Of a DNA stretch of 64,000 bases, positions 3,850 to 47,975 are shown piece by piece; position 1 is the first letter of the stretch, and each line of letters opens with the position of its first letter. Source of the DNA: an uncultured Actinomycetota bacterium. GTDB taxonomy: Bacteria; Actinomycetota; Actinomycetes; JACCUZ01. The notes beneath the pieces are model-generated. The model did not search any database and was not told the origin of the DNA. It worked only from the letters and a program-made list of their open reading frames with translations. The translations under genes and the position numbers were made by a program. The stretch lies in NCBI GenBank assembly GCA_963839955.1, contig CAWIXB010000001.1:1235666-1299665 (forward strand), in the 5' to 3' direction.

Positions 3850-3850
3850 C

Positions 3851-7169: not shown

Positions 7170-7207
7170 GACGGGGACAGACCGACCTCGCTGTGCTGCC
7201 GGACCGG

Positions 7208-8818: not shown

Positions 8819-8993
8819 CCCGCGTCCCCCGCGTGACTGCATCGCAGACCCCACCCTGTCGCGACGCGAGAAGAAGGTACTCCCCGCCGTCTTACGGAGA
8901 GTGTCGGGCCGATGACAACCGGTAGGTAATGGGCAGGGCAAGAATTAGGCCGTTGGGGGAGCCGATGCCACTCGGGCGGCGTAGTCCTTTTGG

Positions 8994-10394
8994 TCAGGCA
9001 CCCTTCAGCCGAGAGCCGCGGACGAGGGCTTCGCGCCCGAGCCCGCGCAACGAGGCATCGAGCACCTCGATCGTGTGGGCGAGAGCCATCTGGCCGCCGA
9101 GGCGGTCGAACGAGGAGCTGACCTGCATGAGGCAGCCCGGGTTTGCTGTCACGAGCAGCTCGGCGCCGGTCTCGAGGACGGCGCGGGCCTTCCGGTCACC
9201 CAGCTCACGCGCGGGCTCCGGGTTGAGCACGTTGTAGATCCCGGCCGAGCCGCAGCAGATCTCGGGGTCGGCGATCTCGCGCAGCTCGACCCCCGGGATG
9301 CCATACAGCAGTGCGCGCGGCTGGCTGCGCACTCCCTGTGCATGCGCGAGGTGGCACGCGTCGTGATAGGCCACCGTCACGTCCAGGGGATGGCGCGTCG
9401 CGACGGGACCGAGGTCAGTCAGGATCTCGCTGATGTCGCGCACCCGACCGGCGAAGGCAGCCGCGCGGTCGGCGTACGCCGGCTCGTCGGCGAGCAGCTC
9501 GGCGTACTCCTTCATCGCCGAGCCGCAGCCGGCCGCGTTGACCACGACGTGCTCCACGCCGGCCCGCTCGAAGGCGTCGATGGTGCGCCGCGCGAAGCGG
9601 CGGGCCTCGCTCTCGCGGCCGTTGTGCACGCTGAGCGCGCCGCAGCAGCCCTGGTTGCGGGGGATGACGACGTCGCAGCCCTCCATGGCGAGCACCCGCG
9701 CCGTTGCCGCGTTGACACCGGGGAAGAACGTGCCCTGCACGCAGCCGGTGAGCATGCCGACGACCGCGCGTCTCGCCCCTCTTGCAGCGACCCGCTCGGG
9801 CAGTGGTCGCGACGACCGCAGCCGCGGCGCCAGGGACTCCATCGCCGCCAATGGCGGTGCGAAGCGGGTCAGCAGCCGGCTGCGCCGCACCAGCCGCTGC
9901 AGGCCGATGCGTTGGTAGGCGCGCAGCGGTCCGCGCACCAGACGCAGCCGGCGAGGGTAGGGGAACAGCGCGAAGATGGCGCCGCGCAGCATCCGTTCGC
10001 GCGGTGTGCGCGCGTGCCGCCGCTCGACCTGCGCGCGGGTGCTCTCGATGAGCTTGTCGTACTGCACGCCGGACGGGCACGCCGTCACGCACGCCATGCA
10101 GCCGAGGCAGGCGTCGAAGTGACCGACCATCGAGTCGGTCATGGGGTCGCCGTCGAGGCCGGACTTCATCAGGTAGATACGACCGCGGGGCGAGTCCATC
10201 TCCTCGCCCCACAGCACATAGGTCGGGCAGGTCGGCAGGCAGAAGCCGCAGTGCACGCAGTCGCCGACCAGCGCGGCATCCGGCGGCCGGTGGTCGTCGA
10301 ACGCCGGTTCGCCCGACGAGGTGGCCACGGCTTGCGGCCCCTCGCTGCCCTGCGTGCCCTTGGTGGCCTCCACCGGGGCGCTGTCGCTCGACAT
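8994..10394 (-). CDS. glcF: glycolate oxidase iron-sulfur subunit (CCG-domain Fe-S oxidoreductase)
   Basis: Two CxxCxxCxxxCP ferredoxin motifs are present (CVHCGFCLPTCPTY and CLGCMACVTACPSG), with Cys-rich CCG repeats downstream. The start was set at ATG 10394 (MSSDSAPVEATK…), which has a GGAGGGA RBS. The track ORF extends further upstream without support. Confidence 0.8.
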   Translation of the reverse strand: MSSDSAPVEATKGTQGSEGPQAVATSSGEPAFDDHRPPDAALVGDCVHCGFCLPTCPTYVLWGEEMDSPRGRIYLMKSGLDGDPMTDSMVGHFDACLGCMACVTACPSGVQYDKLIESTRAQVERRHARTPRERMLRGAIFALFPYPRRLRLVRGPLRAYQRIGLQRLVRRSRLLTRFAPPLAAMESLAPRLRSSRPLPERVAARGARRAVVGMLTGCVQGTFFPGVNAATARVLAMEGCDVVIPRNQGCCGALSVHNGRESEARRFARRTIDAFERAGVEHVVVNAAGCGSAMKEYAELLADEPAYADRAAAFAGRVRDISEILTDLGPVATRHPLDVTVAYHDACHLAHAQGVRSQPRALLYGIPGVELREIADPEICCGSAGIYNVLNPEPARELGDRKARAVLETGAELLVTANPGCLMQVSSSFDRLGGQMALAHTIEVLDASLRGLGREALVRGSRLKGA

Positions 10395-10407
10395 CCGGAT
10401 CCCTCCG

Positions 10408-11550
10408 CTAGATCCCGCCGACGAACCGGCCCGGTGCGAGCCGGTGGTGCGGGTCCATCTCGTCCTTGACCCTGCGCATGAGTGCGAGGCCCGGCACCGG
10501 GCCCCACATGTCGACTGCCTCTCTGACAGGTGGGGGAGCGGCGAGCACGACGACGTTCCCGTCGTACGCCGAGGCGCCCGTCCGCAGGTCGGTGACCAGC
10601 GCCTGTACCGCCTCGGGGTCCGACGAGCCCGGGACGCCGGCGTGCACCACACCAGCCGCGCTGCCGCGCAACGAGATCTCGGTGCCGTGGCGCGCCGCTG
10701 AGGCCCGGGCGATCTCGAGGACCCGGGACAAGCCGGTGATGCGCGTGGTGACCTTGAGCGCCACGTCGTCGCTGCCCCAGGGGTGGGTGTTCCACCAGGG
10801 CGGCGCCGCCGGGTCGCCGTCGGCGGTGCCGAGCAGGTCAGCGGTCGCGCGCACTCGCTGTGCCACGCCCTCGGCGGTGCCTTCGAGCAGCACGCCGACG
10901 CGAGGGCGGCCGTCGGCGGGCCAGTCGACCTCGACGGCGCTGGGCACGACCTGCGAGCCGAGCACCGCCGCCGTCGCGCGGCCCAACGAGGTGGCGTCGT
11001 CGACGTCGACCCCGACCACGTGGCGCACCGAGGGCAGCGGGTGGAGCCGGAAGATCGCCTCGCAGACCAGCCCGAGGGTGCCGTAGGAGCCCGCCAGCAG
11101 CTTGGCGAAGTCGTAGCCGGCGACGTTCTTCACGACCTTGCCGCCCGCCTTCGCGATCACCCCGTCGGCGCGCACGAAGGTGATGCCGATCAGAAGGTCG
11201 CGCACTGTTCCGCGCAACAGCCGTCGCGGCCCGCTCGGGCTGACCGCGATGGTGCCGCCTACCGTGGCGCCGCGCTCGCCGTCGTCGAGGGCGAGCTCCT
11301 GTGCTGCGCCGGCGAGCACCTGCTGGAGCTCGGCCACCGGTGTCCCGGCGCGGACGACGACGACGAGGTCGCCCGCCGCATGGTCGACGACGCCGGTCAG
11401 TCCGGTCGTGTCGACCACGAGGTCGACGGCGGTCGGCGGCGCGCCCCAGTCGATGCGGGTGCCGTTTCCGCGTGCGACCACGCTCAGGTCGTGGTGCGTC
11501 GCGGCGTGGAGCAGGTCGGCCACCTCGGCGGTGGAGTGCGGCGCGGCCAC
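10408..11550 (-). CDS. glcE: glycolate oxidase FAD-binding subunit
   Basis: It is an FAD-binding PCMH-type N-terminal region (…VVARGNGTRIDWGAPP…) placed between glcD and glcF, in the same order as the E. coli glcDEF genes. Confidence 0.7.
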   Translation of the reverse strand: MAAPHSTAEVADLLHAATHHDLSVVARGNGTRIDWGAPPTAVDLVVDTTGLTGVVDHAAGDLVVVVRAGTPVAELQQVLAGAAQELALDDGERGATVGGTIAVSPSGPRRLLRGTVRDLLIGITFVRADGVIAKAGGKVVKNVAGYDFAKLLAGSYGTLGLVCEAIFRLHPLPSVRHVVGVDVDDATSLGRATAAVLGSQVVPSAVEVDWPADGRPRVGVLLEGTAEGVAQRVRATADLLGTADGDPAAPPWWNTHPWGSDDVALKVTTRITGLSRVLEIARASAARHGTEISLRGSAAGVVHAGVPGSSDPEAVQALVTDLRTGASAYDGNVVVLAAPPPVREAVDMWGPVPGLALMRRVKDEMDPHHRLAPGRFVGGI

Positions 11551-11666
11551 GAAGCGCGCCTCGACGCCACCGACAGCGTCCGCGCTCTCGGCCGGGCGGA
11601 CCCGGTCGTCGCAGGTCTTGGCCAGCTCGGCGCGGACCTCGTCGTCGCTGCGTGCGGAGGGCAGGG

Positions 11667-13154
11667 TCAGAACACCTCCGCCAAGCCGGTCTCCTGCAGC
11701 GGGTGGACGCCCTTCTTGCGACCGGGCACCTCGCCGCAGAGGCGGGGGGTCGGGAAGACCTTGCCGGGGTTGGACAGGTGCTGGGGGTCGAAGGCGCAGC
11801 GCAGCATCTGCATGGTGTCCAGGTCGTCGTCGGTGAACATCCGCGGCATGTACTTCGCCTTGTCCATGCCGACACCGTGCTCGCCGGTGATCGAGCCGGC
11901 GTACTCGATGCAGAGATCGAGGATGGCGCCCGAGATCTCCTCGGCCTTCTCGCTCTGGCCCGGCACCGTGTCGTCGAACAGGACGAGCGGGTGCAGGTTG
12001 CCGTCGCCGGCGTGAAAGACGTTCGCGACCCGTACCCCGCCCGGCTCGTCGTCGGACATCGCGGCGATGCGACGCAGTACGTCAGGCAGCGCGGTGCGCG
12101 GGATAACGCCGTCCTGGACGATGTAGTCGGGACTGATGCGGCCCACAGCGGCGAACGCCGACTTGCGGCCCTTCCAGAACAGCGCGCGCTGGGCGTCGTC
12201 CTTCGCGATGCGGATCTCGAAGGCGTGGTTGTCCTGGCAGAGCTTCTCGACCTGGCCGAACTGCGCCGCCACCTCCGGCTCGGGCCCGTCGAGCTCGATG
12301 ACCAGCACGGCACCGGCGCCCTCGGGGTAGCCGCACTGCACCGCCTCCTCCGCGGCCTCGATGGCCAGCGCGTCCATCATCTCGATCGCGGCGGGGATGA
12401 CACCGGCACCGATGATGGCCGACGTCGCTGCGCCCGCCTCGTCGGTCGAGGGGAATGCCGCGAGCATCGTGCGGACCGCCTCGGGCGCCCGCAGCAGCCG
12501 GACGGTGACCTCGGTTGCGATGCCGAGCGTGCCCTCGGAGCCGACGAACGCACCGAGCAGGTCGTAGCCGGGCGGGTCGGGTGCACGACCGCCGAGGCGT
12601 ACGACGTCGCCGTCGGGCGTCACCAGCTCGACACCGACGACGTGGTTGGTCGTGAAGCCGTACTTGAGGCAGTGAGCGCCGCCGGAGTTCTCGGCCACGT
12701 TGCCGCCGATCGAGCAGATCTGCTGGCTCGACGGGTCGGGCGCGTAGTAGTAGCCGTGCGGTGCGGCGGCCCGCGTGACGTCCAGGTTGATGACACCGGG
12801 CTGCACGACCGCTCGTTCGTCCGCAGCATCGACCTGGAGGATCTCGCGGATCTGCGAGGTCACGATCAACACACCTTCGGCGTGCGGCAGTGCCCCACCG
12901 GAGAGCCCGGTGCCGGAGCCACGGGCGACGTAGGGGACTCCGGCGTCGACGCAGGCCCGGACCACCGCGGCCACCTGTCCGGTGTCGCGGGGGAGCACGA
13001 CGACCGCGGGTGTGACCTTGTAGTGCGCGAGCCCGTCGCACTCGTAGGTGCGCAGCTGGGCGTGGTCGGTGAGGACGGCGTCCGTGCCGAGCTCGGCGTG
13101 CAGCCGCGCGACCAGACTCTGCAGCGTCGGGGACGCCATGATCGAGGTGGCCAT
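11667..13154 (-). CDS. glcD: FAD-linked glycolate oxidase subunit GlcD
   Basis: The 495-aa ORF has the FAD-binding-4 pattern (VVLPRDTGQVAAVVRACVDAGVPYVARGSGTGLSGGALP) and a C-terminal FAD-oxidase domain. Confidence 0.85.
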   Translation of the reverse strand: MATSIMASPTLQSLVARLHAELGTDAVLTDHAQLRTYECDGLAHYKVTPAVVVLPRDTGQVAAVVRACVDAGVPYVARGSGTGLSGGALPHAEGVLIVTSQIREILQVDAADERAVVQPGVINLDVTRAAAPHGYYYAPDPSSQQICSIGGNVAENSGGAHCLKYGFTTNHVVGVELVTPDGDVVRLGGRAPDPPGYDLLGAFVGSEGTLGIATEVTVRLLRAPEAVRTMLAAFPSTDEAGAATSAIIGAGVIPAAIEMMDALAIEAAEEAVQCGYPEGAGAVLVIELDGPEPEVAAQFGQVEKLCQDNHAFEIRIAKDDAQRALFWKGRKSAFAAVGRISPDYIVQDGVIPRTALPDVLRRIAAMSDDEPGGVRVANVFHAGDGNLHPLVLFDDTVPGQSEKAEEISGAILDLCIEYAGSITGEHGVGMDKAKYMPRMFTDDDLDTMQMLRCAFDPQHLSNPGKVFPTPRLCGEVPGRKKGVHPLQETGLAEVF

Positions 13155-26382: not shown

Positions 26383-29030
26383 GTGCCTCGATCTCCCTCA
26401 CGCGCCTCAGCGGCCGTCTGCGTCACCCTCGCAGTCGTCGCCGGCGCGCTCGTCACCACGCCTGCTCAGGCGGCCGAGCCGACCGTCCCGTTCATCTCCG
26501 AGCTCCACTACGACAGCAGCGTCGCCAACGACGCCGGCGAGTTCGTCGAGGTGCAGGTGCCGCCAGGTGCCACCGTCGAAGGCTGGACGGTCGTGCTCTA
26601 CAACGGCAATGGTGGTGGGCTCTACGGCGGTCCCCGCACCCTCCCTGCGGTGAGCGCACCTGCCGGCGGGCCGGCTGCCGTCGCGGTGATCGACTACCCC
26701 ACCGTGACCAACGGGGCGGTGCAGAACGGCGCGCCCGACGGGCTCGCCCTGGTCGACGCCGCAGGCAGCGTGGTGGAGTTCCTCTCCTACGAGGGCGGGT
26801 TCACCGCGGTCGGCGGGCCGGCCGATGGTCGGCCAAGCGTCGACATCGGCGTCGCGGAGTCCAACGGCACGCCGGGCGGGTCGTCGCTGTCGAAGCGATT
26901 GGTCGAGGCCACCGGCAACTACGCGTGGCAGCCTGAGGGCGCGAACAGCAAGGGTCAGGTCAACCCGGTCGTCGAGGACGCCTGAGGTCCAGCCGTGCGA
27001 GGTCGCCGTCACGCATGACATCGGCGACGTCCAGGGCAGCGGCGCCAGCAGCCCGCTTGCCGGCGAGCAGGTGAGCGTCCGCGGCGTTGTCGTCGCCGAC
27101 GTCCCCGGCCTCGACGGCTTCTACCTGCAGGACGCGGGCGACGGCGATCCCGACGACCTCGGACGGCATCTTCATCGACAGCCCGGTAGCCGTGGGGCTC
27201 GGCGACACGGTGGCGGTCCAGGGCGGGGCCCAGGAGGACTTCGGCCAGACCGAGATCGTCTCCAACGTGGACACCCAGGTCTGCACACCAGGGTCCGCCG
27301 CGGCGCTGCCGACGCCCGCACCCCTGGACCTGCCGGCCGACAACGCGACGCGGGAGCCGCTCGAGGGCATGCTGGTTGCCCCGGCCGACACGCTGACCGT
27401 CAGCGAGGTCTTCGCGCTCACCCGTTTCGGTGAGCTGACGCTGTCCGAGGGCGGCCTGCTCGTGCAGCCGACCGAGCTGGAGCGGCCCGGCCCGGCCGCG
27501 CAGGCGATCGCTGCGCAGAACGAGCGCCGTCGCGTCCTGCTCGACGACGGGAGCAACGCGTCGCTCAGCGCCACGAACCGGCCCTACCTGAGCCCGACCA
27601 CCCCGGTGCGCGTGGGTGACGAGCTCGAGTTCACGTCACCGGTGGCGCTCGGCTTCGGCTTCGGCTCGTGGCGCCTCCAGCCCTCCGACGGAACGCCCGA
27701 GGGGACGTTCGCGCCGCAGAACACCCGGACCGGCGTGGCCGCTCCCGACGCCGTCGGCGGCGACGTGCAGGTGGGCGCGTTCAACGTGCTGAACTACTTC
27801 CTCACCTTCGGTGGCGTCGGCCGCGGCGCCGCGAACGCGGCTCAGTTCGAGAAGCAGGCCGCCAAGATCGTCACCGCGATCGAGGTGCTGGACACCGACG
27901 TCGTCACGCTGATGGAGATCGAGGACACCGCCTCGACCAACTACGGCGCAGGCACGCCCCAGGAAGGCAACCCCGACCAGGCGCTCGCCGACCTGGTGCG
28001 GCGCCTGAACCTTGCTGCCGGGTTCGACAAGTGGGACTACTCGCCGCTGCCCGACGAGCTTCTCGCGGTCGATCGCGACGTGATCCGCAACGGGATCATC
28101 TACCAGAAGGGCGTCGTGCAGCCGGTCGGCGAGCCGGTCGGTCTCGTGGACGAAACCATCTGGGGCAACGCCCGCGAGCCTCTCGCGCAGACCTTCGCGA
28201 AGGACGGCGACCGGTTCACCGTTATCGCGAACCATTTCAAGTCCAAGAGTCCGTCCGACCCTCCGCAGGAGGGCAACGACAACGAGGACATCGGCGACGG
28301 CCAGGGTGAGTTCAACGGCGACCGCGTCCGCCAGGCCGGTTCGCTGGCAGCGTTCGCTGAAGAGCAGCGGGCGCGGACCAGCGACGCCGACGTGCTGCTG
28401 ATGGGTGACCTCAACGCCTACTCCGAGGAGGACCCGATCGAGCGGCTGCGCCAGGAAGGCTTCAACGACCTAGGCGCGCAGTTCGACGAGGGTCGCTACA
28501 GCTACGTCTTCGACGAGCTCTCCGGCTCGCTCGACCACGCGATGGCTACCGACGCGCTGACCGCAAAGGTCACCGACGTCGCCCACTGGAACATCAACGC
28601 GGGCGAGTCCTTCGCCTACCAGTACGTCGGCGACCCCGCGCTCTACGCCACCCACCAGTTCCGGTCGAGCGACCACGACCCGCTGGTCCTCGGCATCGAT
28701 CTGGAGGAGCGCTGCGACGGCCTGCTTCCGACGATCCGGGGCACGGCCGGAAACGACGTGATCAACGGCACGAACAAGCGTGACGTGATCATGGGCCTCG
28801 GCGGCAACGACGTCCTGAACGGTGCCAACGCCGAGGACGTCGTCTGTGGTGGCGCCGGTGACGACGTCATCAACGGCGGGAACAGCGACGACGTCCTGCT
28901 CGGCGGCTTCGGCAACGACCGCGTCTCGGGCGCCAACGGCAACGACCGTCTCGTCGGTGGACCCGGCGTCGACGTTCTCGACGGCGGCGGCGGGTCGAAC
29001 ACCGTGATCCAGGACGGTCCCGAGTCCTGA
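26383..29030 (+). pseudogene. ExeM/NucH-family extracellular endonuclease (LTD, OB-like linker, EEP nuclease and RTX Ca-binding repeats) split by two +1 frameshifts
   Basis: The gene is read in three frames. Frame 1 (26383-26985) is a signal peptide plus a lamin-tail domain (FISELHYD…GEFVEV…). Frame 2 (about 26985-27160) reads …CEVAVTHDIGDVQGSGASSPLAGEQVSVRGVVVADVPGLDGFYLQDAGDGDPDD. Frame 0 (27087-29030) reads TSDGIFIDSPVAVGLGDTVAV…, followed by an EEP domain and the GGAGNDVINGTNKRDVIMGLGGNDVLNGANAEDVVCGGAGDDVINGGNSDDVLLGGFGNDRV repeats. The breakpoints lie near 26980 and near 27150. Confidence 0.6.
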
Positions 29031-29047: not shown

Positions 29048-29081
29048 GACGGGGACGGGTGCGTTCGCACCCGTCCCCGTC
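29048..29081 (+). terminator. GC-rich hairpin terminator after the nuclease gene
   Basis: Read directly: gacggggacgggtgc-gttc-gcacccgtccccgtc. It forms a perfect 15-bp stem 18 nt after the stop. Confidence 0.5.
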
Positions 29082-30083: not shown

Positions 30084-30875
30084 TCAGACCCGGCGCAGCA
30101 CCGCGGTGACCCGCCCGAGGATGGTCGCGTCGTCGCCCGGGATCGGCTCGTACGCCGGGTTGTGCGGCACCAGCGACACGTGGCCCCCGCGGCGCTGGAA
30201 CGTCTTGACCGTCGCCTCGCCGTCGATCATGGCCGCCACGATCTCGCCGCTCTCGGCGACGGGCTGCTGGCGCACGACGACCCAGTCGCCGTCGCAGATC
30301 GCGGCGTCGACCATCGAGTCACCACGCACCTGGAGCAGGAACAGGGTGCCGTCGCCGACCACCTGCTTGGGCAGCGGGAAGACGTCCTCGACGGCCTCCT
30401 CGGCGAGGATCGGGCCGCCGGCCGCGATGCGGCCGACGAGCGGGACGTAGGCCGCCGCGGGCCGTGCGTCACCGCTGCCGGTCTCGTCGTAGGCCTCAGG
30501 CTCCGGCGCGGGAGGGGCGGGCGCGTCGGCCGCGTCGAGCGGCATGACCTCGATGGCGCGGGGCCGGTTGGCGTCGCGGCGCAGGAAGCCCTTGCGCTCG
30601 AGCGTGGCGAGCTGGTGGGAGACGCTCGACGAGCTGGTCAGGCCGACGGCCTCGCCGATCTCACGCATGCTCGGGGGATAGCCGCGGCGCTCGACGGAGC
30701 TGCGGATGACCTCCAGCACCTTGCGCTGCCGGGGCGTCAGCCCGTTGCTGTCGGGCGGGCCGTCCGCGATCTCGGTGACCGTGGCGCCGTCGCTGGCCTG
30801 GCGCCCTCCGGTGGCCCGCGTGCCACGCCGACGGGTGGTGCTGCCGCCTGTTCCGCTGTCCTCACGCCTGACCAC
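30084..30875 (-). CDS. lexA: LexA repressor (SOS regulator) with an actinobacterial N-terminal extension
   Basis: The HTH region is [34 protein letters not shown]. The Ala-Gly cleavage site and the S24 peptidase Ser and Lys motifs are present ([13 protein letters not shown]…, …VKTFQRR). Confidence 0.9.
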
Positions 30876-31023: not shown

Positions 31024-31039
31024 TCGAACACCCGTTCGA
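31024..31039. promoter_or_regulatory. perfect SOS box TCGAACacccGTTCGA, 40 bp upstream of the divergent LysM gene
   Basis: Read directly. It exactly matches the actinobacterial LexA consensus. Overlapping GTTCGATCGAAC and GTTCGATGAAC palindromes flank it. Confidence 0.8.
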
Positions 31040-31078: not shown

Positions 31079-31465
31079 ATGAGCTCGCTGACCGCCATCC
31101 GGGTGGGCCACGTGGCGGCGCGGCCCAGGCTGGCGCTGGTCCCGCCGTGCCCGCCCGCTCCGCCGCGGCCCGCGCCGGCGCTGCGCCTGACCCGGCGCGG
31201 CCGGCTGGTGGTCGCCCTGGCGCTGGTCGCGCTCGCGGTGCTCACCGGGATGCTGGCGGGCGCGCCGGCCGCTGCCGGGGGGTCCGGGCGCGCTGCGGTG
31301 GCCGAGCGGGTCACTGTGGCACCGGGCGAGACGCTGTGGCAGATCGCCGAGCGGGTCAGCCCGTCGGCCGACCCGCGTGACACGGTCGCGCGCATCCAGG
31401 AGCTCAACGGTCTCGACTCCAGCACCGTCGCGGCGGGCAGAGCGCTGCTCGTTCCGACGGGCTGA
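31079..31465 (+). CDS. chiZ: LysM-domain membrane protein, ChiZ-like (counterpart of the SOS-induced cell-wall hydrolase Rv2719c), divergent from lexA
   Basis: The 128-aa ORF has a GGGAGGA RBS, a TM segment (LVVALALVALAVLTGMLAG) and a C-terminal LysM motif (VAPGETLWQIAERV…ARIQELNGLDSSTVAAGRALLVP). Confidence 0.7.
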   Translation: MSSLTAIRVGHVAARPRLALVPPCPPAPPRPAPALRLTRRGRLVVALALVALAVLTGMLAGAPAAAGGSGRAAVAERVTVAPGETLWQIAERVSPSADPRDTVARIQELNGLDSSTVAAGRALLVPTG

Positions 31466-34729: not shown

Positions 34730-35263
34730 ATGCACTGCCCGTTCTGCCGCCACACCGACAGTCGCGTCGTCGACTCCCGGGCCACCGACGACGGCACCGC
34801 GATCCGCCGCCGCCGCCAGTGCCCCGAGTGCGCCCGGCGGTTCACCACGGTCGAGACCGCGAGCCTGTCGGTGACCAAGCGCTCCGGTGCGAGCGAGCCG
34901 TTCAGCCGCGACAAGGTGCTGGCCGGCGTCCGCAAGGCGTGCCAGGGCCGCCCGGTCACCGAGGACGACCTGGCGCTGCTCGCCCAGCGGGTCGAGGAGG
35001 CCGTGCGGGCCAGCGGGGTCGCCGAGATCGAGGCCCACGAGGTCGGCATGGCGGTCCTGGCGCCGCTGCGTGAGCTCGACGAGGTCGCCTACCTCCGGTT
35101 CGCCTCGGTCTACCGCGCCTTCGACGACCTGGAGGCGTTCGAGTCGGAGATCGCGCTTCTCCGTGCGGAGCACGAATTGGGGGACAGTGCGGAGAACGAC
35201 CTGGGGGCGGAGCACGAGCTGGGGGCAGAGACGGCGGGCCCGCCGCCGTACGAGAAAACCTGA
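34730..35263 (+). CDS. nrdR: transcriptional repressor NrdR (zinc ribbon plus ATP-cone)
   Basis: [17 protein letters not shown]…[10 protein letters not shown] is the zinc ribbon. An ATP-cone follows it. Confidence 0.95.
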
Positions 35264-35347: not shown

Positions 35348-38300
35348 ATGACGGAGACGTCGCACGACAAGCCGCAGGTCGTCCAGGGGGGCGCCGGCGG
35401 GCGCAAGGCTGCCAAGAAGCTCACGGTCGAACGCATCTACACGACCGAGGGCGTGCACCCCTATGACGAGGTGACCTGGGAGCGCCGCGACGTCGTCCAG
35501 CAGAACTGGAAGACCGGCGAGACGATCTTCGAGCAGCGCGGGGTCGAGTTCCCCGACTTCTGGTCGCTCAACGCGTCCACGATCGTCACGACCAAGTACT
35601 TCCGCGGCGCGGTCAACACCGAGGCCCGCGAGACCAGCCTGCGCCAGCTCATCGACCGCGTCGTGAAGACCTACCGCGCGGCCGGCGAGGAGCACCACTA
35701 CTTCGCGACTCCTGACGACGCCGAGGTGTTCGAGCACGAGCTCACCTGGGCGCTGCTCCACCAGGTCTTCTCGTTCAACTCACCGGTGTGGTTCAACGTC
35801 GGGACCTCGAGCCCGCAGCAGGTCTCGGCGTGTCAGCCCTACGACGCCCTCGTCTCGACGCCGGCCGGGCTCGTGCCCATCGGCAAACTTGTCGAGGACG
35901 ATGCCGTGGGCGCGAAGGTCTACGACGCCCATGGCCTCACACGCATCGTTGCCACCAAAGACAACGGTGTGAAGGATGTGCTGCGCCTGCACACGAAGGC
36001 CGGTTACGCACTCGATGTCACGGCCGACCACCTGGTCTGGAAGTCGAGCGGCGACGGCACAGGTGCCTTCGTGCCGGCAGGCACGCTGGCAGCCGGCGAC
36101 AAGCTTGAATGGCACCGCCGCGACGCCTATGGCGAGTCCGAGATCGACCTGCGCGAGATTTACGAGGCGGCCCTCGCGGGCTGGATGCAGTCGGACGGGT
36201 TCGTCGGGCAGTACTCCGGCACGAACCGTTCTCTCACACTCGAGGCGATGACGGTTACGGCCGCTGAACTGGCCTGGGTGACCGAAGCAATCGACGGCGT
36301 GTTCCCCGGCGCACATCGACACGAGCGACCGGTCGTCACGCAGAGCGAGACATTGGACTGCCGGCGGACTCGGCTTTATGGCAACCACCTCAAGCCATTC
36401 GTCAGGCGATGGGGGCTGCTCGACCGTGGCGTGGACATGGTGGTGCCGCCGCAGCTCTTTCAAGCGCCGCTGCCAGTCGTTGCTGCTTACCTGCGCAGCG
36501 TCTTCCAAGCGGAAGGGTTCGTGTCTCCCCGATCGGCGTCGACCGTCGTCGAGGTCGACATGATCTCGGAGCAGCTCATCCGAGGCATGCAGTCGCTGCT
36601 CCTTCGATTCGGCATCTTCGCGTGCGTGGGTTTCAAGAAGGATCCGCGTGAGGACCGCAAGGGCTGCTGGTCACTGCGGATCCAAAACGAGGGCGATCGC
36701 AAGGCGTTCCAGACCGAGATCGGTTTCATCGACCCGGAGAAGGCCGACAAGCTGACTCGTAGCTTTGACATGCCGGGTCGGGCCTCGCAGCCCACGAAGC
36801 GGCTGGAGGTCGCCCAAATCGAGTCGCTCGGGGCGATGAATGTCTACGACATCCAAACCGAGTCCGGTGAGTACCTCTCCGGCAACCTTCGGGTGCACAA
36901 CTGTTTCATCCTGGCCGTCGATGACACGATGGACTCGATCCTGAACTGGTACCGCGAGGAGGGCCTGATCTTCAAGGGCGGCTCCGGCGCCGGCCTCAAC
37001 CTCTCGCGCATCCGCTCGTCCAAGGAGCTTCTGTCCTCCGGCGGCACCGCCTCCGGCCCGGTCTCGTTCATGCGCGGTGCCGACGCGAGCGCGGGCACGA
37101 TCAAGTCGGGCGGCGCGACCCGGCGTGCGGCGAAGATGGTCGTCCTTGACGTCGACCACCCCGACATCGAGGAGTTCGTCGAGACGAAGGCGCGCGAGGA
37201 GAACAAGATCCGGGCGCTGCGTGACGCCGGGTTCGACATGGACCTCGGTGGCAAGGACATCCACTCCGTGCAGTACCAGAACGCCAACAACTCGGTGCGG
37301 GTCACCGACGAGTTCATGCGGGCGGTCGAGCAGGGCGAGGATTTCGGCCTGCGCGCGCGTGGCTCCGGCGACGTCGTCGAGACCGTCGACGCGCGCGAGC
37401 TGTGGAAGAAGATCGCCATGGCGGCGTGGGAGTGCGCCGACCCCGGCATCCAGTACGACGACACGATCAACGACTGGCACACCAACCCCGAGACCGGTCG
37501 CATCACCGCGAGCAACCCGTGCTTCCCGGCCGACCAGCGCGTCGTCACGGACAAGGGTCTCGTCCCGATCGGGGAGCTCGTCCAGCGGGCGGCGACCGGT
37601 GAGGCCTTCGAGGTCTACACGAACGACGTCACATCCCAGGACGACGCTGTTTCTCGGGTTGTCGCGAGTCGCCCGGTCCGCTACATGGTCACGGGCACGA
37701 ACGAGATCCTCGAGTTGCGCTTCTCCGACGGTTCTCGCCTGCGCTGCACGCCCGGTCACCGGCTGTGGACGCGTAACCGGGGATGGGTGCACGCCGAGGA
37801 CCTCGACGCCGCGGACGAGCTCGTCCGCTCCTTCGAATACGCAGGGCGTTCCATGGCCTCCCTCGCCCTTCCCCTCGCAGCGCGGGACGTGGCGCGTCGG
37901 GCGGCGAGGCTGTCCCTTCCGGTGAAGTGGGATGAGGACATCGCTCACTACCTCGGCTGGATCACCGGGGACGGATGCCTCACGGCGACGACGGCCACCA
38001 CCGTCTACGGGAATAAGCAAGAGCAGCGTGACGTACTGCCGCGTCATTCGAAGTTGCTCGCTGGGTGGACCGGGTTCGACGCCAAGCCGAGCCTGCAGGC
38101 CAATTCTACCCAGCAGTTGAGGTCGGCCAAGAAGGATGTCGTGTCCTTCTTGCAGGGCCTCGGCATCACGTCCGGCAGAGCTGGGGACAAGAGGGTGCCG
38201 ACCTCGATCTACGAGGCGCCTGAGGATGCACTCGTGGCCTTCCTGCAGGGACTGTTCGACGCCGACGGCTGCGTCGTCGACCAGGCGGCCAACGGTACCC

Positions 38301-40450
38301 GCTACGTCGGCCTCGGCAGTCGCTCCGAGGAGTTGCTCCTCGGCGTACAGGAGCTGTTGGCCTCGCTGGGGATTGCAGGCCGGATCTACCAGGGGGGCAC
38401 CAAGTCCGCCTCATTCAGGCATACCCGCAAGGACGGCAGCGAAGCGGTTTACGGCTCCGACGGGCCGTCGTTCGATCTCCGCATCACGGGACGCTCACTG
38501 CGCGAGTTCGCCGCCCAGGTGGGCTTCACACTCGCTGCGAAGCAGAACAAGCTCACGACGGTGATCGATGACTACAAGTTCTATGGCACCGATGAGACGG
38601 TTCGTCTGATCTCGCGGGAGTCGCAAGGCTTCGAGACGACCTACAACCTCACTGAGCCGCGCAACCACTCCTACATTGTCAGTGGAATGGTTGTTGCGAA
38701 CTGCAGTGAGTACATGTCGCTCGACAACTCGTCGTGCAACCTCGCCTCGCTGAACCTGATGAAGTTCCTGCGCGACGACGACACGTTCGACGCGCCGAAG
38801 TTCGCGAAGGTCGTCGAGCTGGTCATCACCGCGATGGACATCTCGATCTGCTTCGCCGACTTCCCGACCGAGGCGATCGGCGAGACCACCCGCGCCTACC
38901 GCCAGCTCGGCATCGGCTACGCCAACCTCGGCGCGCTGCTGATGGCGACCGGCCACGGCTACGACAGCGAGGGCGGCCGGGCACTGGCGGCTTCGATCAC
39001 CTCCCTGATGACCGGCACGTCCTACAAGCGGTCGGCCGAGCTGGCCGCCGTGGTCGGCCCCTACGAGGGCTACGCGCGCAACGCCGACGCGCACCGCCGG
39101 GTGATGCGCAAGCATGCGGCGGCCAACGACGCCGTCCGCGCGCTCGACGCGATGGGCCGCGAGGTGCAGCACGAGGCCACCAAGGCGTGGGAGGCATGCC
39201 TGAAGTACGGCGAGAAGGCCGGCTGGCGCAACGCGCAGGCCAGTGTCCTCGCGCCCACCGGGACGATCAGCTTCATGATGGACACCGACACGACCGGCAT
39301 CGAGCCCGACTTCTCGCTGGTCAAGTTCAAGAAGCTGGTCGGCGGCGGGTCGATGCAGATCGTCAACCAGACCGTCCCGCGGGCGCTGCGCAAGATGGGC
39401 TACGCCGAGGAGACGATCGAGGCGATCATCGAGTACATCGCCGAGCACGGTCATGTCATCGACGCGCCCGGTCTGCGCACCGAGCACTACGAGGTGTTCG
39501 ACTGCGCGATGGGCGAGCGGGCGCTGGCACCGATGGGTCATGTGCGGATGATGGCGGCCGTGCAGCCGTTCCTGTCCGGCGCGATCTCGAAGACGGTCAA
39601 CCTGCCCGAGACGGCGACGGTCGAAGAGATCGAGGACGTCCACTTCCAGGGCTGGAAGCTCGGCCTCAAGGCGCTGGCTGTCTACCGCGACAACTGCAAG
39701 GTCGGCCAGCCGCTGTCCGACGGCAGGGGCAAGTCGGCTGAGAAGGCGGTCGAGAAGGTCGTCGAGTACCGCCCGACCCGCAAGCGGCTGCCGAAGAAGC
39801 GCCCGGCGCAGATGACGTCGTTCGCGGTCGGCGGTGCCGAGGGCTACATGACTGCGTCGTCCTACCCCGACGACGGGCTCGGCGAGATCTTCCTGAAGAT
39901 GTCGAAGCAGGGCTCGACGCTGGCCGGCGTGATGGACGCGTTCTCGATCGCGATCTCGATCGGCCTGCAGTACGGCGTGCCGCTGGAGACGTTCGTGTCG
40001 AAGTTCGTCAACATGCGCTTCGACCCGGCCGGTCTCACCGACGACCCGGACGTGCGGATGGCGCAGTCGATGATGGACTACATCTTCCGCCGGCTGGCGC
40101 TCGACTACCTCGACTTCGAGACCCGGTCGGCCTACGGCATCTACACCGCCGACGAGCGGGCCCGCCAGCTCGAGACCGGCTCCTACCAGTCGACCGAGTC
40201 CGGCGAGGACATCGAGGAGGAGCTCGAGTCGTTGGCGCAGTCGGCGCCCGTCACCGAGCACCCGGCCCCGAGCGAGTCGCCGGCGGTCAAGGAGGCGCCG
40301 CCCCAGGTGCAGTCCTCGGCCGAGCTGCTCGAGGCCATCACCGGTCAGGCATCCGACGCGCCGCTGTGCATGTCATGTGGGACGAAGATGCGCCCGGCCG
40401 GATCCTGCTACGTCTGCGAAGGGTGCGGCAGCACGAGCGGCTGCAGCTGA
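35348..40450 (+). CDS. nrdJ: adenosylcobalamin-dependent class II ribonucleotide reductase NrdJ precursor containing two inteins (mature extein about 949 aa)
   Basis: NrdJ extein blocks are present: FNSPVWFNVG…PQQVSA | CFILAVDDTMDSILNWYREEGLIFKGGSGAGLNLSRIRSSKELL…ITASNP | CSEYMSLDNSSCNLASLNL… They are followed by the C-terminal half and a Cys-rich C-terminal tail (CMSCGTKMRPAGSCYVCEGCGSTSGC). Confidence 0.9.
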   Translation: MTETSHDKPQVVQGGAGGRKAAKKLTVERIYTTEGVHPYDEVTWERRDVVQQNWKTGETIFEQRGVEFPDFWSLNASTIVTTKYFRGAVNTEARETSLRQLIDRVVKTYRAAGEEHHYFATPDDAEVFEHELTWALLHQVFSFNSPVWFNVGTSSPQQVSACQPYDALVSTPAGLVPIGKLVEDDAVGAKVYDAHGLTRIVATKDNGVKDVLRLHTKAGYALDVTADHLVWKSSGDGTGAFVPAGTLAAGDKLEWHRRDAYGESEIDLREIYEAALAGWMQSDGFVGQYSGTNRSLTLEAMTVTAAELAWVTEAIDGVFPGAHRHERPVVTQSETLDCRRTRLYGNHLKPFVRRWGLLDRGVDMVVPPQLFQAPLPVVAAYLRSVFQAEGFVSPRSASTVVEVDMISEQLIRGMQSLLLRFGIFACVGFKKDPREDRKGCWSLRIQNEGDRKAFQTEIGFIDPEKADKLTRSFDMPGRASQPTKRLEVAQIESLGAMNVYDIQTESGEYLSGNLRVHNCFILAVDDTMDSILNWYREEGLIFKGGSGAGLNLSRIRSSKELLSSGGTASGPVSFMRGADASAGTIKSGGATRRAAKMVVLDVDHPDIEEFVETKAREENKIRALRDAGFDMDLGGKDIHSVQYQNANNSVRVTDEFMRAVEQGEDFGLRARGSGDVVETVDARELWKKIAMAAWECADPGIQYDDTINDWHTNPETGRITASNPCFPADQRVVTDKGLVPIGELVQRAATGEAFEVYTNDVTSQDDAVSRVVASRPVRYMVTGTNEILELRFSDGSRLRCTPGHRLWTRNRGWVHAEDLDAADELVRSFEYAGRSMASLALPLAARDVARRAARLSLPVKWDEDIAHYLGWITGDGCLTATTATTVYGNKQEQRDVLPRHSKLLAGWTGFDAKPSLQANSTQQLRSAKKDVVSFLQGLGITSGRAGDKRVPTSIYEAPEDALVAFLQGLFDADGCVVDQAANGTRYVGLGSRSEELLLGVQELLASLGIAGRIYQGGTKSASFRHTRKDGSEAVYGSDGPSFDLRITGRSLREFAAQVGFTLAAKQNKLTTVIDDYKFYGTDETVRLISRESQGFETTYNLTEPRNHSYIVSGMVVANCSEYMSLDNSSCNLASLNLMKFLRDDDTFDAPKFAKVVELVITAMDISICFADFPTEAIGETTRAYRQLGIGYANLGALLMATGHGYDSEGGRALAASITSLMTGTSYKRSAELAAVVGPYEGYARNADAHRRVMRKHAAANDAVRALDAMGREVQHEATKAWEACLKYGEKAGWRNAQASVLAPTGTISFMMDTDTTGIEPDFSLVKFKKLVGGGSMQIVNQTVPRALRKMGYAEETIEAIIEYIAEHGHVIDAPGLRTEHYEVFDCAMGERALAPMGHVRMMAAVQPFLSGAISKTVNLPETATVEEIEDVHFQGWKLGLKALAVYRDNCKVGQPLSDGRGKSAEKAVEKVVEYRPTRKRLPKKRPAQMTSFAVGGAEGYMTASSYPDDGLGEIFLKMSKQGSTLAGVMDAFSIAISIGLQYGVPLETFVSKFVNMRFDPAGLTDDPDVRMAQSMMDYIFRRLALDYLDFETRSAYGIYTADERARQLETGSYQSTESGEDIEEELESLAQSAPVTEHPAPSESPAVKEAPPQVQSSAELLEAITGQASDAPLCMSCGTKMRPAGSCYVCEGCGSTSGCS
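35831..36901 (+). mobile_element. intein 1 in NrdJ (357 aa) with a LAGLIDADG homing-endonuclease domain
   Basis: It starts Cys (CQPYDALVSTPAGLVPIGKL) and ends …GNLRVHN, followed by +1 Cys. The dodecapeptide motifs are LAGWMQSDGFVG and AAYLRSVFQAEGFV. It sits within the conserved VSAC|FIL active-site region. Confidence 0.85.
37520..38701 (+). mobile_element. intein 2 in NrdJ (394 aa) with a LAGLIDADG homing-endonuclease domain
   Basis: It starts Cys (CFPADQRVVTDKGLVPIGEL) and ends …YIVSGMVVAN, followed by +1 Cys. The motifs are HYLGWITGDGCL and LVAFLQGLFDADGCV. It interrupts the conserved TASNPC|SEY region. The penultimate residue is Ala rather than His. Confidence 0.8.
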
Positions 40451-40493: not shown

Positions 40494-40528
40494 GCGTGCC
40501 GTCCGCAGGTCACTGGTGCTTGCGGCAT

Positions 40529-40636
40529 CTAGCGCTTGCGCTTGAGGGCCACCATGACCATCGCTACGACTAGCACGATGCCGATGGCGAGTCCACCGCC
40601 GAGAGCCGGAGGCCGGTCGATGGCAGCTCGTCGCAT
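40529..40636 (-). CDS. possible 35-aa small membrane protein (MRRAAIDRPPALGGGLAIGIVLVVAMVMVALKRKR)
   Basis: It has an ATG start, a single hydrophobic helix and a KRKR tail. It is short, and in GC-rich DNA this is weak evidence. Confidence 0.25.
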   Translation of the reverse strand: MRRAAIDRPPALGGGLAIGIVLVVAMVMVALKRKR

Positions 40637-40767
40637 CACTCCGATGACGGCGGCGCTGCGCCGCATTCTCGTCGCGCACGGGGTGGCCCAGCGCACCGGG
40701 ATCCCGGTAACGGAGGTTCTCGCCCGGGGGTACGGCGTCCGCGACGGCCCACCCGTCCCGGCGCGAC

Positions 40768-41067
40768 GTGCTCAAGGCCGCCGGAGCCGTTGTCGCCGGC
40801 GCCACCCTCGGCGGCATACTGCCGGCCCGCCGCGCGAACGCGGCGACCAACCCGAGCGCCATTGTGGTCGGCGCGGGGCTGGCCGGGCTGCGCGCCGCGC
40901 ACTACCTGTGGCGGGTGAAGGGCATCTCCGCCGCCGTCTACGCGGGCAATACCCGGGCCGGTGGGCGCTGCTGTTCCCTGCGGGACTACTTCCCCGGGCT
41001 GGTCGCTCACGTGTCCGAGACGGGCGCACGCCGCTGCGGGCCGCGATCACTCCGGGCTGGTCAGTGA
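40768..41067 (+). pseudogene. N-terminal fragment (about 100 aa) of a Tat-secreted flavin amine-oxidase-family gene
   Basis: The twin-arginine-like leader is RRDVLKAAGAVVAGATLGG. The FAD-binding GxGxxG region is IVVGAGLAGLRAAHYL, with …GGRC… after it. The ORF then terminates, whereas normal length is 450 aa or more. Confidence 0.45.
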
Positions 41068-41099
41068 CGACGAGGCGAGCGCCCAGTTCCTCGACAGCT

Positions 41100-41867
41100 T
41101 CACCAGGCGTCATCGGCCCGAGGACGTCTTCAGCGCGGCGCGCACGAGGCAGTGGCGGACGGTGTGGACCTACCAGGAGGGGCTGCACGAGCTGCGCCAC
41201 CTGATCGAGGAGGTGAGCGACGAGGACCTGCTCGCACGTGTCCCGGCTTGCCCGGACTGGAACGTAGCGGAGCTCGCGGCCCACCTGGCTGGTGTCGCCG
41301 CCGACTCGGCCCGAGGTGCGTACTTCGGCGGCGCTGCAGGCCTGGCAGGACCCGGTGATCGCCGGCGCACGTGACGAGTGGACGGCGGGGCCACCTCGAG
41401 AGCCACTCCGGCCGGACGCGCGCTCTGCTGCTGCGCGACCTCGAGGTCCATGGCAGCAACCTTGTGGCGGCCATGCGTCGGGGCGACCAGGTGTCCGCGG
41501 ACGGGTCGCCCGCGATGGCTCTCGCGCCACTCGGAGATCTCGCGGTCCACCTGGCCGACCTGCGCGAGGCACTGGGCCTCCCGGCCGACAAGACGGTCCG
41601 GTCGCCGGGTCGGGGTTCGCGCTCTACCGCGACTGGCTGGCCGAGCGGCTCCGGCACTGCGGGCTGCCGGCGCTGCGGCTCGACACGGGCCAGAAGGAGT
41701 GGGTCGTCGGCGAGGGTGAGCCCGCCGCGACCGTCACCGCGTCCGGCTACGAGCTGTTCCGCATGATCAGTGGGCGACGGAGCGCGCGGGACATCGTCTT
41801 CCGCACGTGGACGGGCGACCCCACGCCGTACCTGCCGGTCATCGCGCCGTACCCACTGCCCGCCTGA
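41100..41867 (+). pseudogene. TIGR03083-like (mycothiol-dependent maleylpyruvate-isomerase N-terminal domain / DinB-fold) gene disrupted by two frameshifts
   Basis: Three consecutive frames carry plausible protein. They read …LLARVPACPDWNVAELAAHLAG…, then …RALLLRDLEVHGSNLVAAMRRGDQVS…LAVHLADLREALGLPADKTV…, then …LYRDWLAERLRHCGLPALRLDTG…ELFRMISGRRSARDIVFRTWTGDPTPYLPVIAPY. Confidence 0.5.
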
Positions 41868-41876
41868 GCGGCTCTG

Positions 41877-44093
41877 TCAGAGCTTGGACTCGGATGGCAC
41901 GTCCGACGGCGTCCGCTGGCGGCCGATGGCGTCGCGGAGGTCGAACTCGTCGTCAGTGATCTCGTGACCTTCGACGTGGACGTTCGGGAGCAGCCGGTCG
42001 AGCCAGCCCGGGAGCCACCAGTTGCGGTCGCCGAGGAGCTCCATGGTGGCCGGCACCAGCACCATGCGGACAAGAGTGGCGTCGACGAGGACGGCGGTGG
42101 CCAACCCGATGCCGAACATCTTGCCGAGCACGGCGTCGCCGAGCGCGAACGAGATGAAGACGGTGACCATGACGGCGGCGCCGGCAGTGATGACCCTGGC
42201 GGACTTGGCCAGGCCGTCGGCGACCGCGAGCGCGTTGTCGCCGGTCCGGTCGTACTCCTCCTTGATGCGTGACAGCAGGAAGACCTCGTAGTCCATCGAC
42301 AGCCCGAACAGGACCGCGAAGATGCCGATCGGCAGCTGAATGGGTATCGGTGTCTCCTCCGGGATGCCCACCAATTCGCCGAGCGGGCCGCCGCTGACAG
42401 CGAGGGCCAGCACGCCGAAGGCCACCGAGGTCGCCAACAGGTTCATGACCACGGCCTTGATCGGTACGACGACCGAGCGGAACACGATCAGCAGCAGCAC
42501 GAACGACATCAACAGCACGCCGCCGAAGAAGTAGAGCAGCCGGTCGATCGTGCCGCGGGTCGTGTCGAGGTTGGCAGCCACCGACCCGCCGACGTCCACG
42601 GTGAGGCCGGTGCCCGCGACAGCGGCCGGGATGCTCTGGTCACGCAGCCGATCGACCAGGTCATTGGTGGCCTCGTCCTGCGGCGACGTGGTGGGCACGA
42701 CGCGCAGCAGCGCGACGTCACCCGCCGGGTTGAGGACGGCGGGCTCGACCAGGGCCACGCCGTCGACCGCGCGCAACTGGTCGCCGACTGTGTCGGTGGC
42801 AGTCTGCAGCACGTCGTCCGACTGTCCCTGGACGGTGAGGAGCAACGGCGCCGAGTAGCCCGGGCCGAACCCGTCGGCGAGCAGGTCGTACGCCTGGCGG
42901 GTGGTGAAGCTGGGTGGGTCGCTCTTGGCGTCGGGGAAGCCGAAGCGGATGCCCAGGAAGGGCGCAGCCAGCGCCAGCATGACAACGAGTGCACCGATCG
43001 CGGCAACCCAGGGCCGGCGCTGGATGAACCGGCTCCAGCGGTACCAGCGCGTTGTGTCGTAGGCCTGCGGTTCCTTGCTCACGAACGGCACGTGGAGGCG
43101 CTCGATGTTGCGACCGGCGAACCCGAGCATGGCCGGCAGCAGGGTCACCGAGACGGCCATGACGATGAGCACGGCCGGGATCACGGCGAAGGCGAACCCG
43201 GTCATCGACGGCTGGCCCATGAGCAGGATGCCGAGCATCGAGATGACGACGGTGAGCCCGGCGAACAGGGCGGCACGGCCTGCCGTCGCGATCGCCGTCA
43301 GGGTGGCGCGATGTGGGTCCTGCCCTTGGGCGAGGCTGCTGCGGAACCTGGTGACGATGAGCAGCGCGTAGTCGATGCCGATCCCGATGCCGATCATCGC
43401 GGCCGTGGGGGGAGCCCAGTCCGGAACGTCGACAACGCGCATCACGAGCGCACCGAGGGCAGTGGCGATGCCGAGGCCGAACAGCGCGGTGAGCAGCGGC
43501 AGCCCCATCGCGACCGCGGAGCCGAAGGTGAACAGCAAGATGATCGCCGCGGCGAGGAACCCGATGCCTTCGGAGCCGACCGGTGCGACTTGGGACAGGG
43601 CAGCGACCGGGCCGCCTGCCTCGACCTGCAGGGTGCCGTTGCCGGCGGCAAGGACCGGCTCGACCAGGGCCTTGGCCTCGTCGACCGTGAACTCGTTGTC
43701 CTTCTTGTCGAGTGCGATGTCGGCGTACGCGGTCGTTCCGTCCTCGGAGATCTGGCCGGAGCCGGCGTCCGTGAACGGGCTGGTGACGCCGACGACGTGC
43801 GGCTCGTCAGCCACGTCGGCGAAGACCTTCTCCGCCTGCGCCTGTACGTCGGGTGTGGTGACGCCGGCTGCCGAGTGGACCACGATCTGCATGGTGTCGC
43901 CGGCTCGCTGCGGGAAGCTCTCGGTGAGGGTGTCCGAAGCGACCTTCGACTCAGACCCGGGCTGGAGGTAGTTCTGCCGGAGCTCCCCACCGAACGCGCC
44001 CGCCAGCGCGAACGACCCCACCAGGGCGACGATCCACGCGAAGACGACCAGGCGACGCCGTCGGTAGCAGAGGTCAGCAAGGCGTACCAACAT
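41877..44093 (-). CDS. MMPL-family (RND superfamily) membrane transporter
   Basis: There are about 12 TM helices and two periplasmic loops, in a pattern typical of MmpL. ATG 44093 has a GAGGAG RBS. Confidence 0.85.
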   Translation of the reverse strand: MLVRLADLCYRRRRLVVFAWIVALVGSFALAGAFGGELRQNYLQPGSESKVASDTLTESFPQRAGDTMQIVVHSAAGVTTPDVQAQAEKVFADVADEPHVVGVTSPFTDAGSGQISEDGTTAYADIALDKKDNEFTVDEAKALVEPVLAAGNGTLQVEAGGPVAALSQVAPVGSEGIGFLAAAIILLFTFGSAVAMGLPLLTALFGLGIATALGALVMRVVDVPDWAPPTAAMIGIGIGIDYALLIVTRFRSSLAQGQDPHRATLTAIATAGRAALFAGLTVVISMLGILLMGQPSMTGFAFAVIPAVLIVMAVSVTLLPAMLGFAGRNIERLHVPFVSKEPQAYDTTRWYRWSRFIQRRPWVAAIGALVVMLALAAPFLGIRFGFPDAKSDPPSFTTRQAYDLLADGFGPGYSAPLLLTVQGQSDDVLQTATDTVGDQLRAVDGVALVEPAVLNPAGDVALLRVVPTTSPQDEATNDLVDRLRDQSIPAAVAGTGLTVDVGGSVAANLDTTRGTIDRLLYFFGGVLLMSFVLLLIVFRSVVVPIKAVVMNLLATSVAFGVLALAVSGGPLGELVGIPEETPIPIQLPIGIFAVLFGLSMDYEVFLLSRIKEEYDRTGDNALAVADGLAKSARVITAGAAVMVTVFISFALGDAVLGKMFGIGLATAVLVDATLVRMVLVPATMELLGDRNWWLPGWLDRLLPNVHVEGHEITDDEFDLRDAIGRQRTPSDVPSESKL

Positions 44094-47765: not shown

Positions 47766-47975
47766 TCACGGTGGCCACGCCGCCTCGAACTTCTCGACGC
47801 CCTCGTCCTCAAGCACCGCGACCACGTCGTCGTAGTCGACACCGACAGCGGCCAGGTCGGCAAGCACCTGCTGCGCGTCCGCGTAGCGCGGCCGGATGGT
47901 GTCATTGAGGATTACGCCGTGGTCGGCGACGGCGTTCAACGTCGCCTCGGGCATCTCGGTCAGCGGGTCAGCCAT
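47766..47975 (-). CDS. small hypothetical protein (about 69 aa) lying between folE and the ferredoxin reductase
   Basis: The translation is [69 protein letters not shown]. The C-terminal part resembles the LE.EGV.KF..SW tail of actinobacterial transaldolases. Its function is unknown. Confidence 0.35.

Follow-up and report, generated by a model that had tools for sequence, protein, structure and literature searches.

Is the gene for an extracellular nuclease in an uncultured actinobacterium truly broken, or was it broken only during assembly? The question arises in the window, the 64,000-nucleotide stretch of contig CAWIXB010000001.1 from an uncultured Actinomycetota bacterium that we analyzed as a whole, where three open reading frames (ORFs) on the forward strand cover what reads as a single gene of the ExeM/NucH family of extracellular nucleases: ORF1 in frame 1 (26383-26985), ORF2 in frame 2 (26825-27433) and ORF3 in frame 0 (27087-29030). 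The ORF list and the six-frame translation bore out the frame order (1, then 2, then 0) and the stop at 26985 proposed in the initial annotation of this DNA. Frame 1 is open from a GTG at 26383 to a TGA at 26983-26985 and encodes 200 residues; frame 2 encodes ...PEVQPCEVAVTHDIGDVQGSGASSPLAGEQVSVRGVVVADVPGLDGFYLQDAGDGDP..., and frame 0 encodes TTSDGIFIDSPVAVGLGDTVAV... and all downstream residues up to a stop at 29028-29030. In a phase plot of the GC content at third codon positions, too, the coding phase changes from 0 to 2 between 26880 and 27180. Weighing the assembled sequences alone, we favor a real, strain-level pseudogenization of this gene by two single-base insertions over an assembly artifact, and we infer that both insertions exist in the genome itself and did not arise during assembly.

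The lesions could be located exactly by comparison with a conspecific. An exact look-up placed the 200- and 612-residue fragments of the window in one 90% cluster with an intact protein of 881 residues (P0122). Via the cluster members P0122, P0125 and P0127 we reached contig_3613 of ENA ERZ25039516, a 1.24-Mb metagenome contig, and compared the window with it over positions 16383-63463 (47,081 bp), using the sequence around the nuclease gene (L017) and two sequences further along (L018 and L019) found via two neighboring proteins. The two genomes are 99.94% identical over these 47 kb (~0.06% divergence) and differ by 27 substitutions and three single-base indels, two of which are the frameshifts. 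The conspecific carries the intact 881-residue gene, close to the length of about 880 residues that the initial annotation had expected. Pairwise alignment with L017 identified lesion 1 as an extra C at 26979 (GAGGA[C]GCC), which shifts frame 1 to frame 2, and lesion 2 as an extra G at 27152 (CCC[G]ACG), which shifts frame 2 to frame 0. Both are +1 shifts, they lie 173 bp apart and neither is in a homopolymer; the initial annotation had proposed two +1 frameshifts about 170 bp apart, and each falls inside the interval it had named. At the junctions the window allele reads GAGGACGCC and CCCGACG and the conspecific allele GAGGAGCC and CCCACG; L017 reads GAGGAGCCTGAG (..VVEEPEV..) at lesion 1 and GATCCCACGACC (..DPTT..) at lesion 2.

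Apart from the two insertions, the alleles differ by one single-nucleotide polymorphism (SNP) and their proteins are otherwise identical. The SNP, at 27143 and thus 9 bp before lesion 2, is G (Gly) in the window and A (Ser) in the conspecific. Because the residue is Gly in 9 of 13 orthologs and Ser in none, the window state is probably the ancestral one. The frame-0 segment (27153-29030, 625 residues) is 100% identical to the intact allele, and nothing else in the nuclease gene has decayed. The window-specific states at 26979, 27143 and 27152 each form a GACG tetranucleotide (GGA[C]GCC, GAC[G]GC and CC[G]ACG), a sequence common in this codon usage.

Orthologs from other species gave the same picture of an originally continuous gene. 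The three pieces were joined conceptually into a repaired protein of 882 residues, which was used for a homolog search in a collection of 5.8 billion proteins (E ≤ 1e-10) and for alignment. The search returned 1768 matches; the best from other species were 70-73% identical and 852-886 residues long, with 96-100% query coverage, and more than 100 intact orthologs of about 870 residues were colinear with the joined ORFs. Also among the matches was a 612-residue protein (P0001) whose sequence equals the C-terminal part of the repaired one. As the initial annotation had recommended, the repaired protein was also aligned with orthologs, and it ran unbroken across both junctions in all 13 intact sequences. 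A scan of contigs from species-representative genomes found only other species, at no more than 73% identity. The frame is therefore broken in the window relative to intact orthologs and intact in a conspecific. Because that conspecific is 99.94% identical and has the intact gene, the disruption is either very recent or unreal, which supports the original choice between a recent pseudogene and two sequencing indels.

The same comparisons bear on whether the full-length nuclease could still be made from the window allele by two programmed +1 ribosomal frameshifts or by transcriptional slippage. The contexts offer some encouragement, as a TGA directly follows the shift site at the first junction (GCC TGA G) and the second junction is at CCC-G, a codon context prone to +1 slippage by tRNA-Pro. 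However, conservation is lacking, as the gene is a single ORF in the conspecific and in every ortholog inspected. Most of the loci that we fetched gave one unbroken nuclease match in tblastn searches, and the breaks in three of them (L012, L013 and L014) are at other positions in the gene. Re-pairing from GCC to CCU would be poor, two inefficient events in succession would yield hardly any product, and neither site has a slippery homopolymer that could promote slippage during transcription. With the shifts absent from the conspecific and the orthologs, programmed frameshifting is effectively refuted, and we give it next to no weight. Phase variation at a contingency locus was also rejected, as neither GAGGA[C]GCC nor CCC[G]ACG is a repeat tract.

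Profile searches placed the gene in a large and already named family. The intact allele matches NF033681 (ExeM/NucH family extracellular endonuclease; cut-off 300 bits) end to end, with 526.2 bits over profile positions 1-546 and a domain start at residue 232. ORF3 of the window matches positions 29-546 (504.2 bits), and profile positions 1-28 fall in the frame-2 segment (26981-27151). This segment corresponds to residues 200-256 of the intact protein and, from its translation, the ortholog alignment and the profile matches, comprises a linker that contains Cys as well as the opening strands of the OB-like (YhcR-like) part. ORF2 matches positions 157-251 of the ExeM profile, and residues 3-81 of PDB 9sf9 align to residues 213-289 (E 7e-14). 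What had been described as a conserved linker in frame 2 is thus more than a linker: it is where the conserved OB-like portion of the ExeM/NucH domain begins. The frame-0 segment supplies the rest of that domain and the EEP domain (PF03372, 33.7 bits against a cut-off of 24.5; ORF3 residues 232-530, about 27780-28676), which was also found in 13 of 13 orthologs. Downstream is a block of RTX calcium-binding repeats at 28740-29009 (PF00353, 65.9 bits against a cut-off of 23), after which the protein ends ...VIQDGPES. Listing the repeats in register gave nine nonapeptides (G-x4-D-x-[VIL]-x) spaced exactly 9 residues apart plus a degenerate tenth, instead of the six hemolysin-type repeats counted initially, and their best sequence matches in the PDB were the RTX blocks of CyaA and of lipases. 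The match to the ExeM model proper (NF033680, exonuc_ExeM-GG) was 195.8 bits against a cut-off of 1300 and the GlyGly-CTERM is absent, so the protein is not ExeM sensu stricto.

At the other end, ORF1 (26383-26985) encodes a predicted Sec signal peptide and an all-beta domain before the premature TGA. The putative signal peptide, judged by eye alone, spans residues 1-30, with a basic n-region, a hydrophobic core and AQA|A at 28-31; A28 and A30 do not vary among 14 sequences. The domain that follows had been labeled a lamin-tail domain (LTD), a name with weak support from the sequence. ORF1 matches Pfam LTD (PF00932) over positions 8-107 of 109 but below the cut-off (E = 0.025; 15.4 bits against 34.3), and none of the 13 orthologs matched it at E ≤ 0.1. 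An AlphaFold2 model of ORF1 (mean predicted local distance difference test 85.9) is all-beta with eight strands, and its top three fold matches in the PDB are the tails of human lamins A/C and B1, at a probability of 0.85-0.96, weak E values of 0.02-0.08 and template modeling scores of 0.43-0.49. The N-terminal domain is fairly described as immunoglobulin-like (Ig-like) and probably of the lamin-tail type.

The predicted architecture of the intact enzyme is a signal peptide, an Ig-like domain, an OB-like nucleic-acid-binding region, an EEP two-metal catalytic domain and a C-terminal RTX block. By analogy with ExeM, it would be exported by the Sec pathway and degrade extracellular nucleic acid, with the RTX block binding calcium. 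In the window allele, translation from the native GTG would end after 200 residues and yield at most a secreted Ig-like fragment. The signal peptide is cut off from the catalytic domain in the allele as written, as noted from the start, and so is the Ig-like domain; the catalytic part is also without the first half of the OB-like region and without an evident ribosome-binding site. In ExeM of Shewanella oneidensis, deletion of the OB-like or the EEP part abolishes activity, and the LTD is dispensable (PMC6085458). Because the catalytic ORF has no export signal, no evident ribosome-binding site and no first half of a region essential in ExeM, the window allele would be null for extracellular DNase, and no active truncated product is expected to be made.

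The split could have created two functional proteins, a secreted Ig-like protein of 200 residues and a separately initiated cytoplasmic nuclease of 612-647 residues, each with a new role. Gene callers did predict both products, and the EEP and RTX domains of ORF3 are intact. Upstream of the GTG and TTG starts of ORF3, however, we saw no Shine-Dalgarno-like sequence, and the nuclease product would be without the export signal and without the first half of the OB-like region that ExeM requires (PMC6085458). The arrangement is also confined to a single genome and dates back no further than about the 0.06% divergence, which has left no time for selection to act. We consider such a split very improbable.

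A loss of function by real mutation is supported by the quality of the surrounding sequence. The only other indel in the 47 kb is a GGG/GGGG difference at 47730, which is intergenic and upstream of a gene on the reverse strand (46482-47708); no gene other than the nuclease gene carries an indel. With this one intergenic homopolymer difference, the assembly of the window is not generally indel-prone. Furthermore, 15 of 26 genic substitutions between the two genomes are synonymous, a signature of purifying selection. Since random errors would be mostly non-synonymous, the two sequences are truly diverged strains and their assemblies are base-accurate. The insertions themselves lie outside homopolymers, which is atypical of the indel errors of sequencing platforms. 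As a contrast, we used two contigs of metagenome-assembled genomes (MAGs) of uncultured Actinomycetota (L012 and L013, about 3200-12800), assemblies that seem indel-rich. In tblastn searches, frame breaks affected the helicase and nuclease in L012 and the helicase, nuclease, ligase and LexA in L013; in the window they affected the nuclease alone.

The main competitor to a real mutation is a local assembly or polishing artifact, in which the organism has an intact 881-residue gene and the extra bases stem from a poorly resolved stretch, for example one with low coverage or with merged reads of mixed strains. A pair of uncompensated +1 insertions at a distance of 173 bp has no biological purpose and, as the sole genic indels in 47 kb, would fit one bad patch in a gene that is otherwise identical to the intact allele. 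The strain-variable SNP 9 bp from lesion 2 is also relevant, as mixed haplotypes can confuse polishing, and related long-read MAGs (L012 and L013) do have frame breaks. In addition, the submitter annotation called the 200- and 612-residue proteins, and public protein sets hold the locus in this form, with no pseudogene flag. Set against the artifact are the otherwise clean assembly with its selected SNPs and the position of the insertions outside homopolymers, where residual long-read and 454/Ion errors concentrate. We regard an artifact as a distinct possibility but not as the expected explanation.

Other observations weigh against the real mutation that we favor. The frameshifted allele was seen in one assembly alone, and a search of Joint Genome Institute (JGI) metagenomes for a third copy of either allele, using a gapped pattern across junction 1, gave no matches. 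One indel suffices to kill the gene, and under neutrality a second, independent one at a distance of 173 bp would be improbable at 0.06% divergence. Our own arithmetic gives p about 0.02 that two of three indels scattered randomly over 47 kb fall within 173 bp. Something local must therefore account for the pair, and an assembly problem confined to this spot would qualify. Differences also cluster elsewhere, with four SNPs at 48155-48602 and three at 61237-61495, and clustering as such is therefore not exceptional. When all 30 differences were considered, about 0.17 triplets within 174 bp were expected (again our arithmetic), which makes the clustering non-significant; significance was limited to the pairing of two of the three indels (p about 0.02).

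A local cause of another kind could be provided by an imperfect inverted repeat. A repeat search identified arms at 26967-26982 and 27143-27158 that are complementary at 13 of 16 positions, the left one containing C26979 and the right one G27143 and G27152. All of the changed bases are paired (C26979 with G27146, G27152 with C26973 and G27143 with C26982), and the conspecific allele pairs in the same region only as blocks of 6 bp and 2 bp. In a post hoc simulation, random changes of the same geometry placed across the window (20000 trials) reached the observed score 231 times for the two insertions (p about 0.01) and 79 times for all three sites. The minimum free energy (MFE) DNA fold of the window allele includes the inverted-repeat pairing and that of the conspecific allele does not. 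Among 636 random triples, the ensemble folding gain of -3.4 kcal/mol fell in the lowest 4%, but the MFE gain of -2.5 only at 15%. For the artifact this is a further difficulty, as we know of no technical reason why errors should improve an inverted repeat with a 160-nt spacer.

The pattern nevertheless departs from a single classical template switch, which predicts neither residual mismatches nor changes in both arms. Complementarity was raised more than by chance, a result obtained post hoc, but no arm contains an exact reverse-complement copy: the insertions are in opposite arms, and mismatches persist at 26975/27150, 26977/27148 and 26978/27147. Nor did we find a meaningful templating donor or a source for gene conversion in the window when 14- to 15-mers spanning each change were searched on both strands with up to two mismatches, and short direct repeats such as AGGACGC occur at chance level. 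The improved inverted repeat is thus a hint of templated mutagenesis, no more. That both insertions arose in one event, either by reciprocal correction in a transient hairpin or cruciform of the inverted repeat or in one patch of error-prone synthesis, seems to us unlikely, if conceivable. If it were true, the locus would record a natural, polarized, multi-site templated mutation that killed a gene in a wild actinobacterial population, caught at 0.06% divergence and with the ancestral allele in hand.

For annotation, the locus is best recorded as one frameshifted ExeM/NucH nuclease gene, either as a pseudogene or as 'frameshifted, needs verification', and not as a hypothetical protein of 200 residues next to a nuclease of 612. 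If the lesions are real, the strain no longer has an extracellular DNase that is retained in a relative of 99.94% identity, and the pair could offer a natural knockout comparison. In other bacteria, such nucleases influence how extracellular DNA is turned over, how biofilms are structured and how DNA serves as a nutrient (PMC6085458). Beyond the annotation and the loss in one strain, the finding is ordinary and raises no new question about the mechanism or the family.

The genomic neighborhood includes a YoaA/DinG-like helicase, a stand-alone ligase, LexA and a LysM/YneA-like gene. The initial annotation had placed the nuclease next to ligC and a lexA SOS region. The ligase and the lexA SOS box are indeed nearby, but the ligase passes the model for the LigD ligase domain of non-homologous end joining (TIGR02779; 283 bits against 228) and is better described as stand-alone than as 'ligC'. 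The nearest uncultured relatives (L004, L012 and L013) have retained the order helicase, nuclease, ligase and LexA, which was absent around the nuclease in Geodermatophilaceae (L005 and L007-L011). A perfect actinobacterial SOS box (TCGAACACCCGTTCGA, 31024-31039) is located between the divergent lexA (30084-30875, reverse strand) and the LysM/YneA-like gene (31079-31465, forward strand). The motif GAAC-N4-GTTC occurs in the window only at 31026 and 10299, with none upstream of the nuclease start at 26383, and control of the nuclease by LexA was rejected for want of a box there. Between the nuclease stop and the ligase start is a perfect GC-rich hairpin of 34 nt (29048-29081, forward strand), with a predicted RNA folding energy of -53.3 kcal/mol (z -4.4) that none of 200 shuffles equaled. 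A scan for consensus promoters and terminators was uninformative in this GC-rich DNA, and the hairpin was not called as it lacks a T run. It is probably a terminator that makes the nuclease gene monocistronic; because so strong a hairpin separates the two genes, polar effects of the lesions on the downstream ligase are unlikely.

Additional features of the window deserve mention. An ORF of 1700 residues for a ribonucleotide reductase (35348-40450, forward strand) carries Pfam matches to Intein_splicing and to two LAGLIDADG_3 domains and seems to contain two intein/homing-endonuclease insertions; NrdR is encoded just upstream (34730-35263). The region 40500-41900 holds short ORF fragments (MDMPI_N, 70 residues; NAD_binding_8, 99 residues), with the GC3 phase passing through 0, 1 and 2 within 1.3 kb. 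These fragments look like older gene remnants and are also present in the conspecific contig. At 47766-48642 on the reverse strand, the end of a GTP cyclohydrolase I gene is overlapped by a transaldolase (TAL_FSA) fragment of 69 residues; relative to the conspecific, that gene has four SNPs, every one of them non-synonymous, which could reflect relaxed selection or import by recombination. A second EEP (Exo_endo_phos) gene at 62827-64000 (forward strand) runs off the window and encodes 422 residues in the conspecific.

Several known systems resemble parts of this locus. For the inverted repeat, the closest parallel is the template switching associated with quasipalindromes in E. coli and yeast (PMC7202029, PMC3820800). 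There too, changes are clustered and include frameshifts, and the complementarity of the arms is extended. The present case differs in its spacer of 160 nt instead of a few nucleotides, in having changes in both arms, in its three uncorrected mismatches and in its modest, post hoc statistics.

For the protein, ExeM of S. oneidensis MR-1 (871 residues; PMC6085458) and its Vibrio cholerae ortholog Xds (PMC6746945) match the order of parts predicted for the intact window protein (signal, lamin-tail-type, OB-like YhcR-like and EEP) and have a similar length. ExeM of S. oneidensis, the only member for which such secreted, metal-dependent activity is known, is an endonuclease without sugar specificity that needs Ca2+ plus Mg2+ or Mn2+ (PMC6085458). 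Its model NF033680 is matched by ORF2 and ORF3, and gammaproteobacterial relatives (L015 and L016) are 32-33% identical. In contrast to ExeM, the window protein has an RTX nonapeptide block instead of a GlyGly-CTERM anchor for rhombosortase, its host is a Gram-positive-type actinobacterium and its gene is frameshifted. The closest solved relatives of the nuclease core, though distant, are PDB 9sf9 and 9sf8 ('Endonuclease/exonuclease/phosphatase domain-containing protein', 562-563 residues). From their length and the positions of the match, they apparently have neither an Ig-like N-terminal domain nor an RTX tail, and the stretch that aligns with 9sf9 (213-289) is cut by the frameshifts. Also close are the NF033681 proteins of Jiangellaceae, Geodermatophilaceae (Blastococcus, Modestobacter and Geodermatophilus), Kineococcus, Naasia and Cellulomonas, which share 62-73% identity over the full length and the same RTX tail, and from which the window copy differs by the two insertions only.

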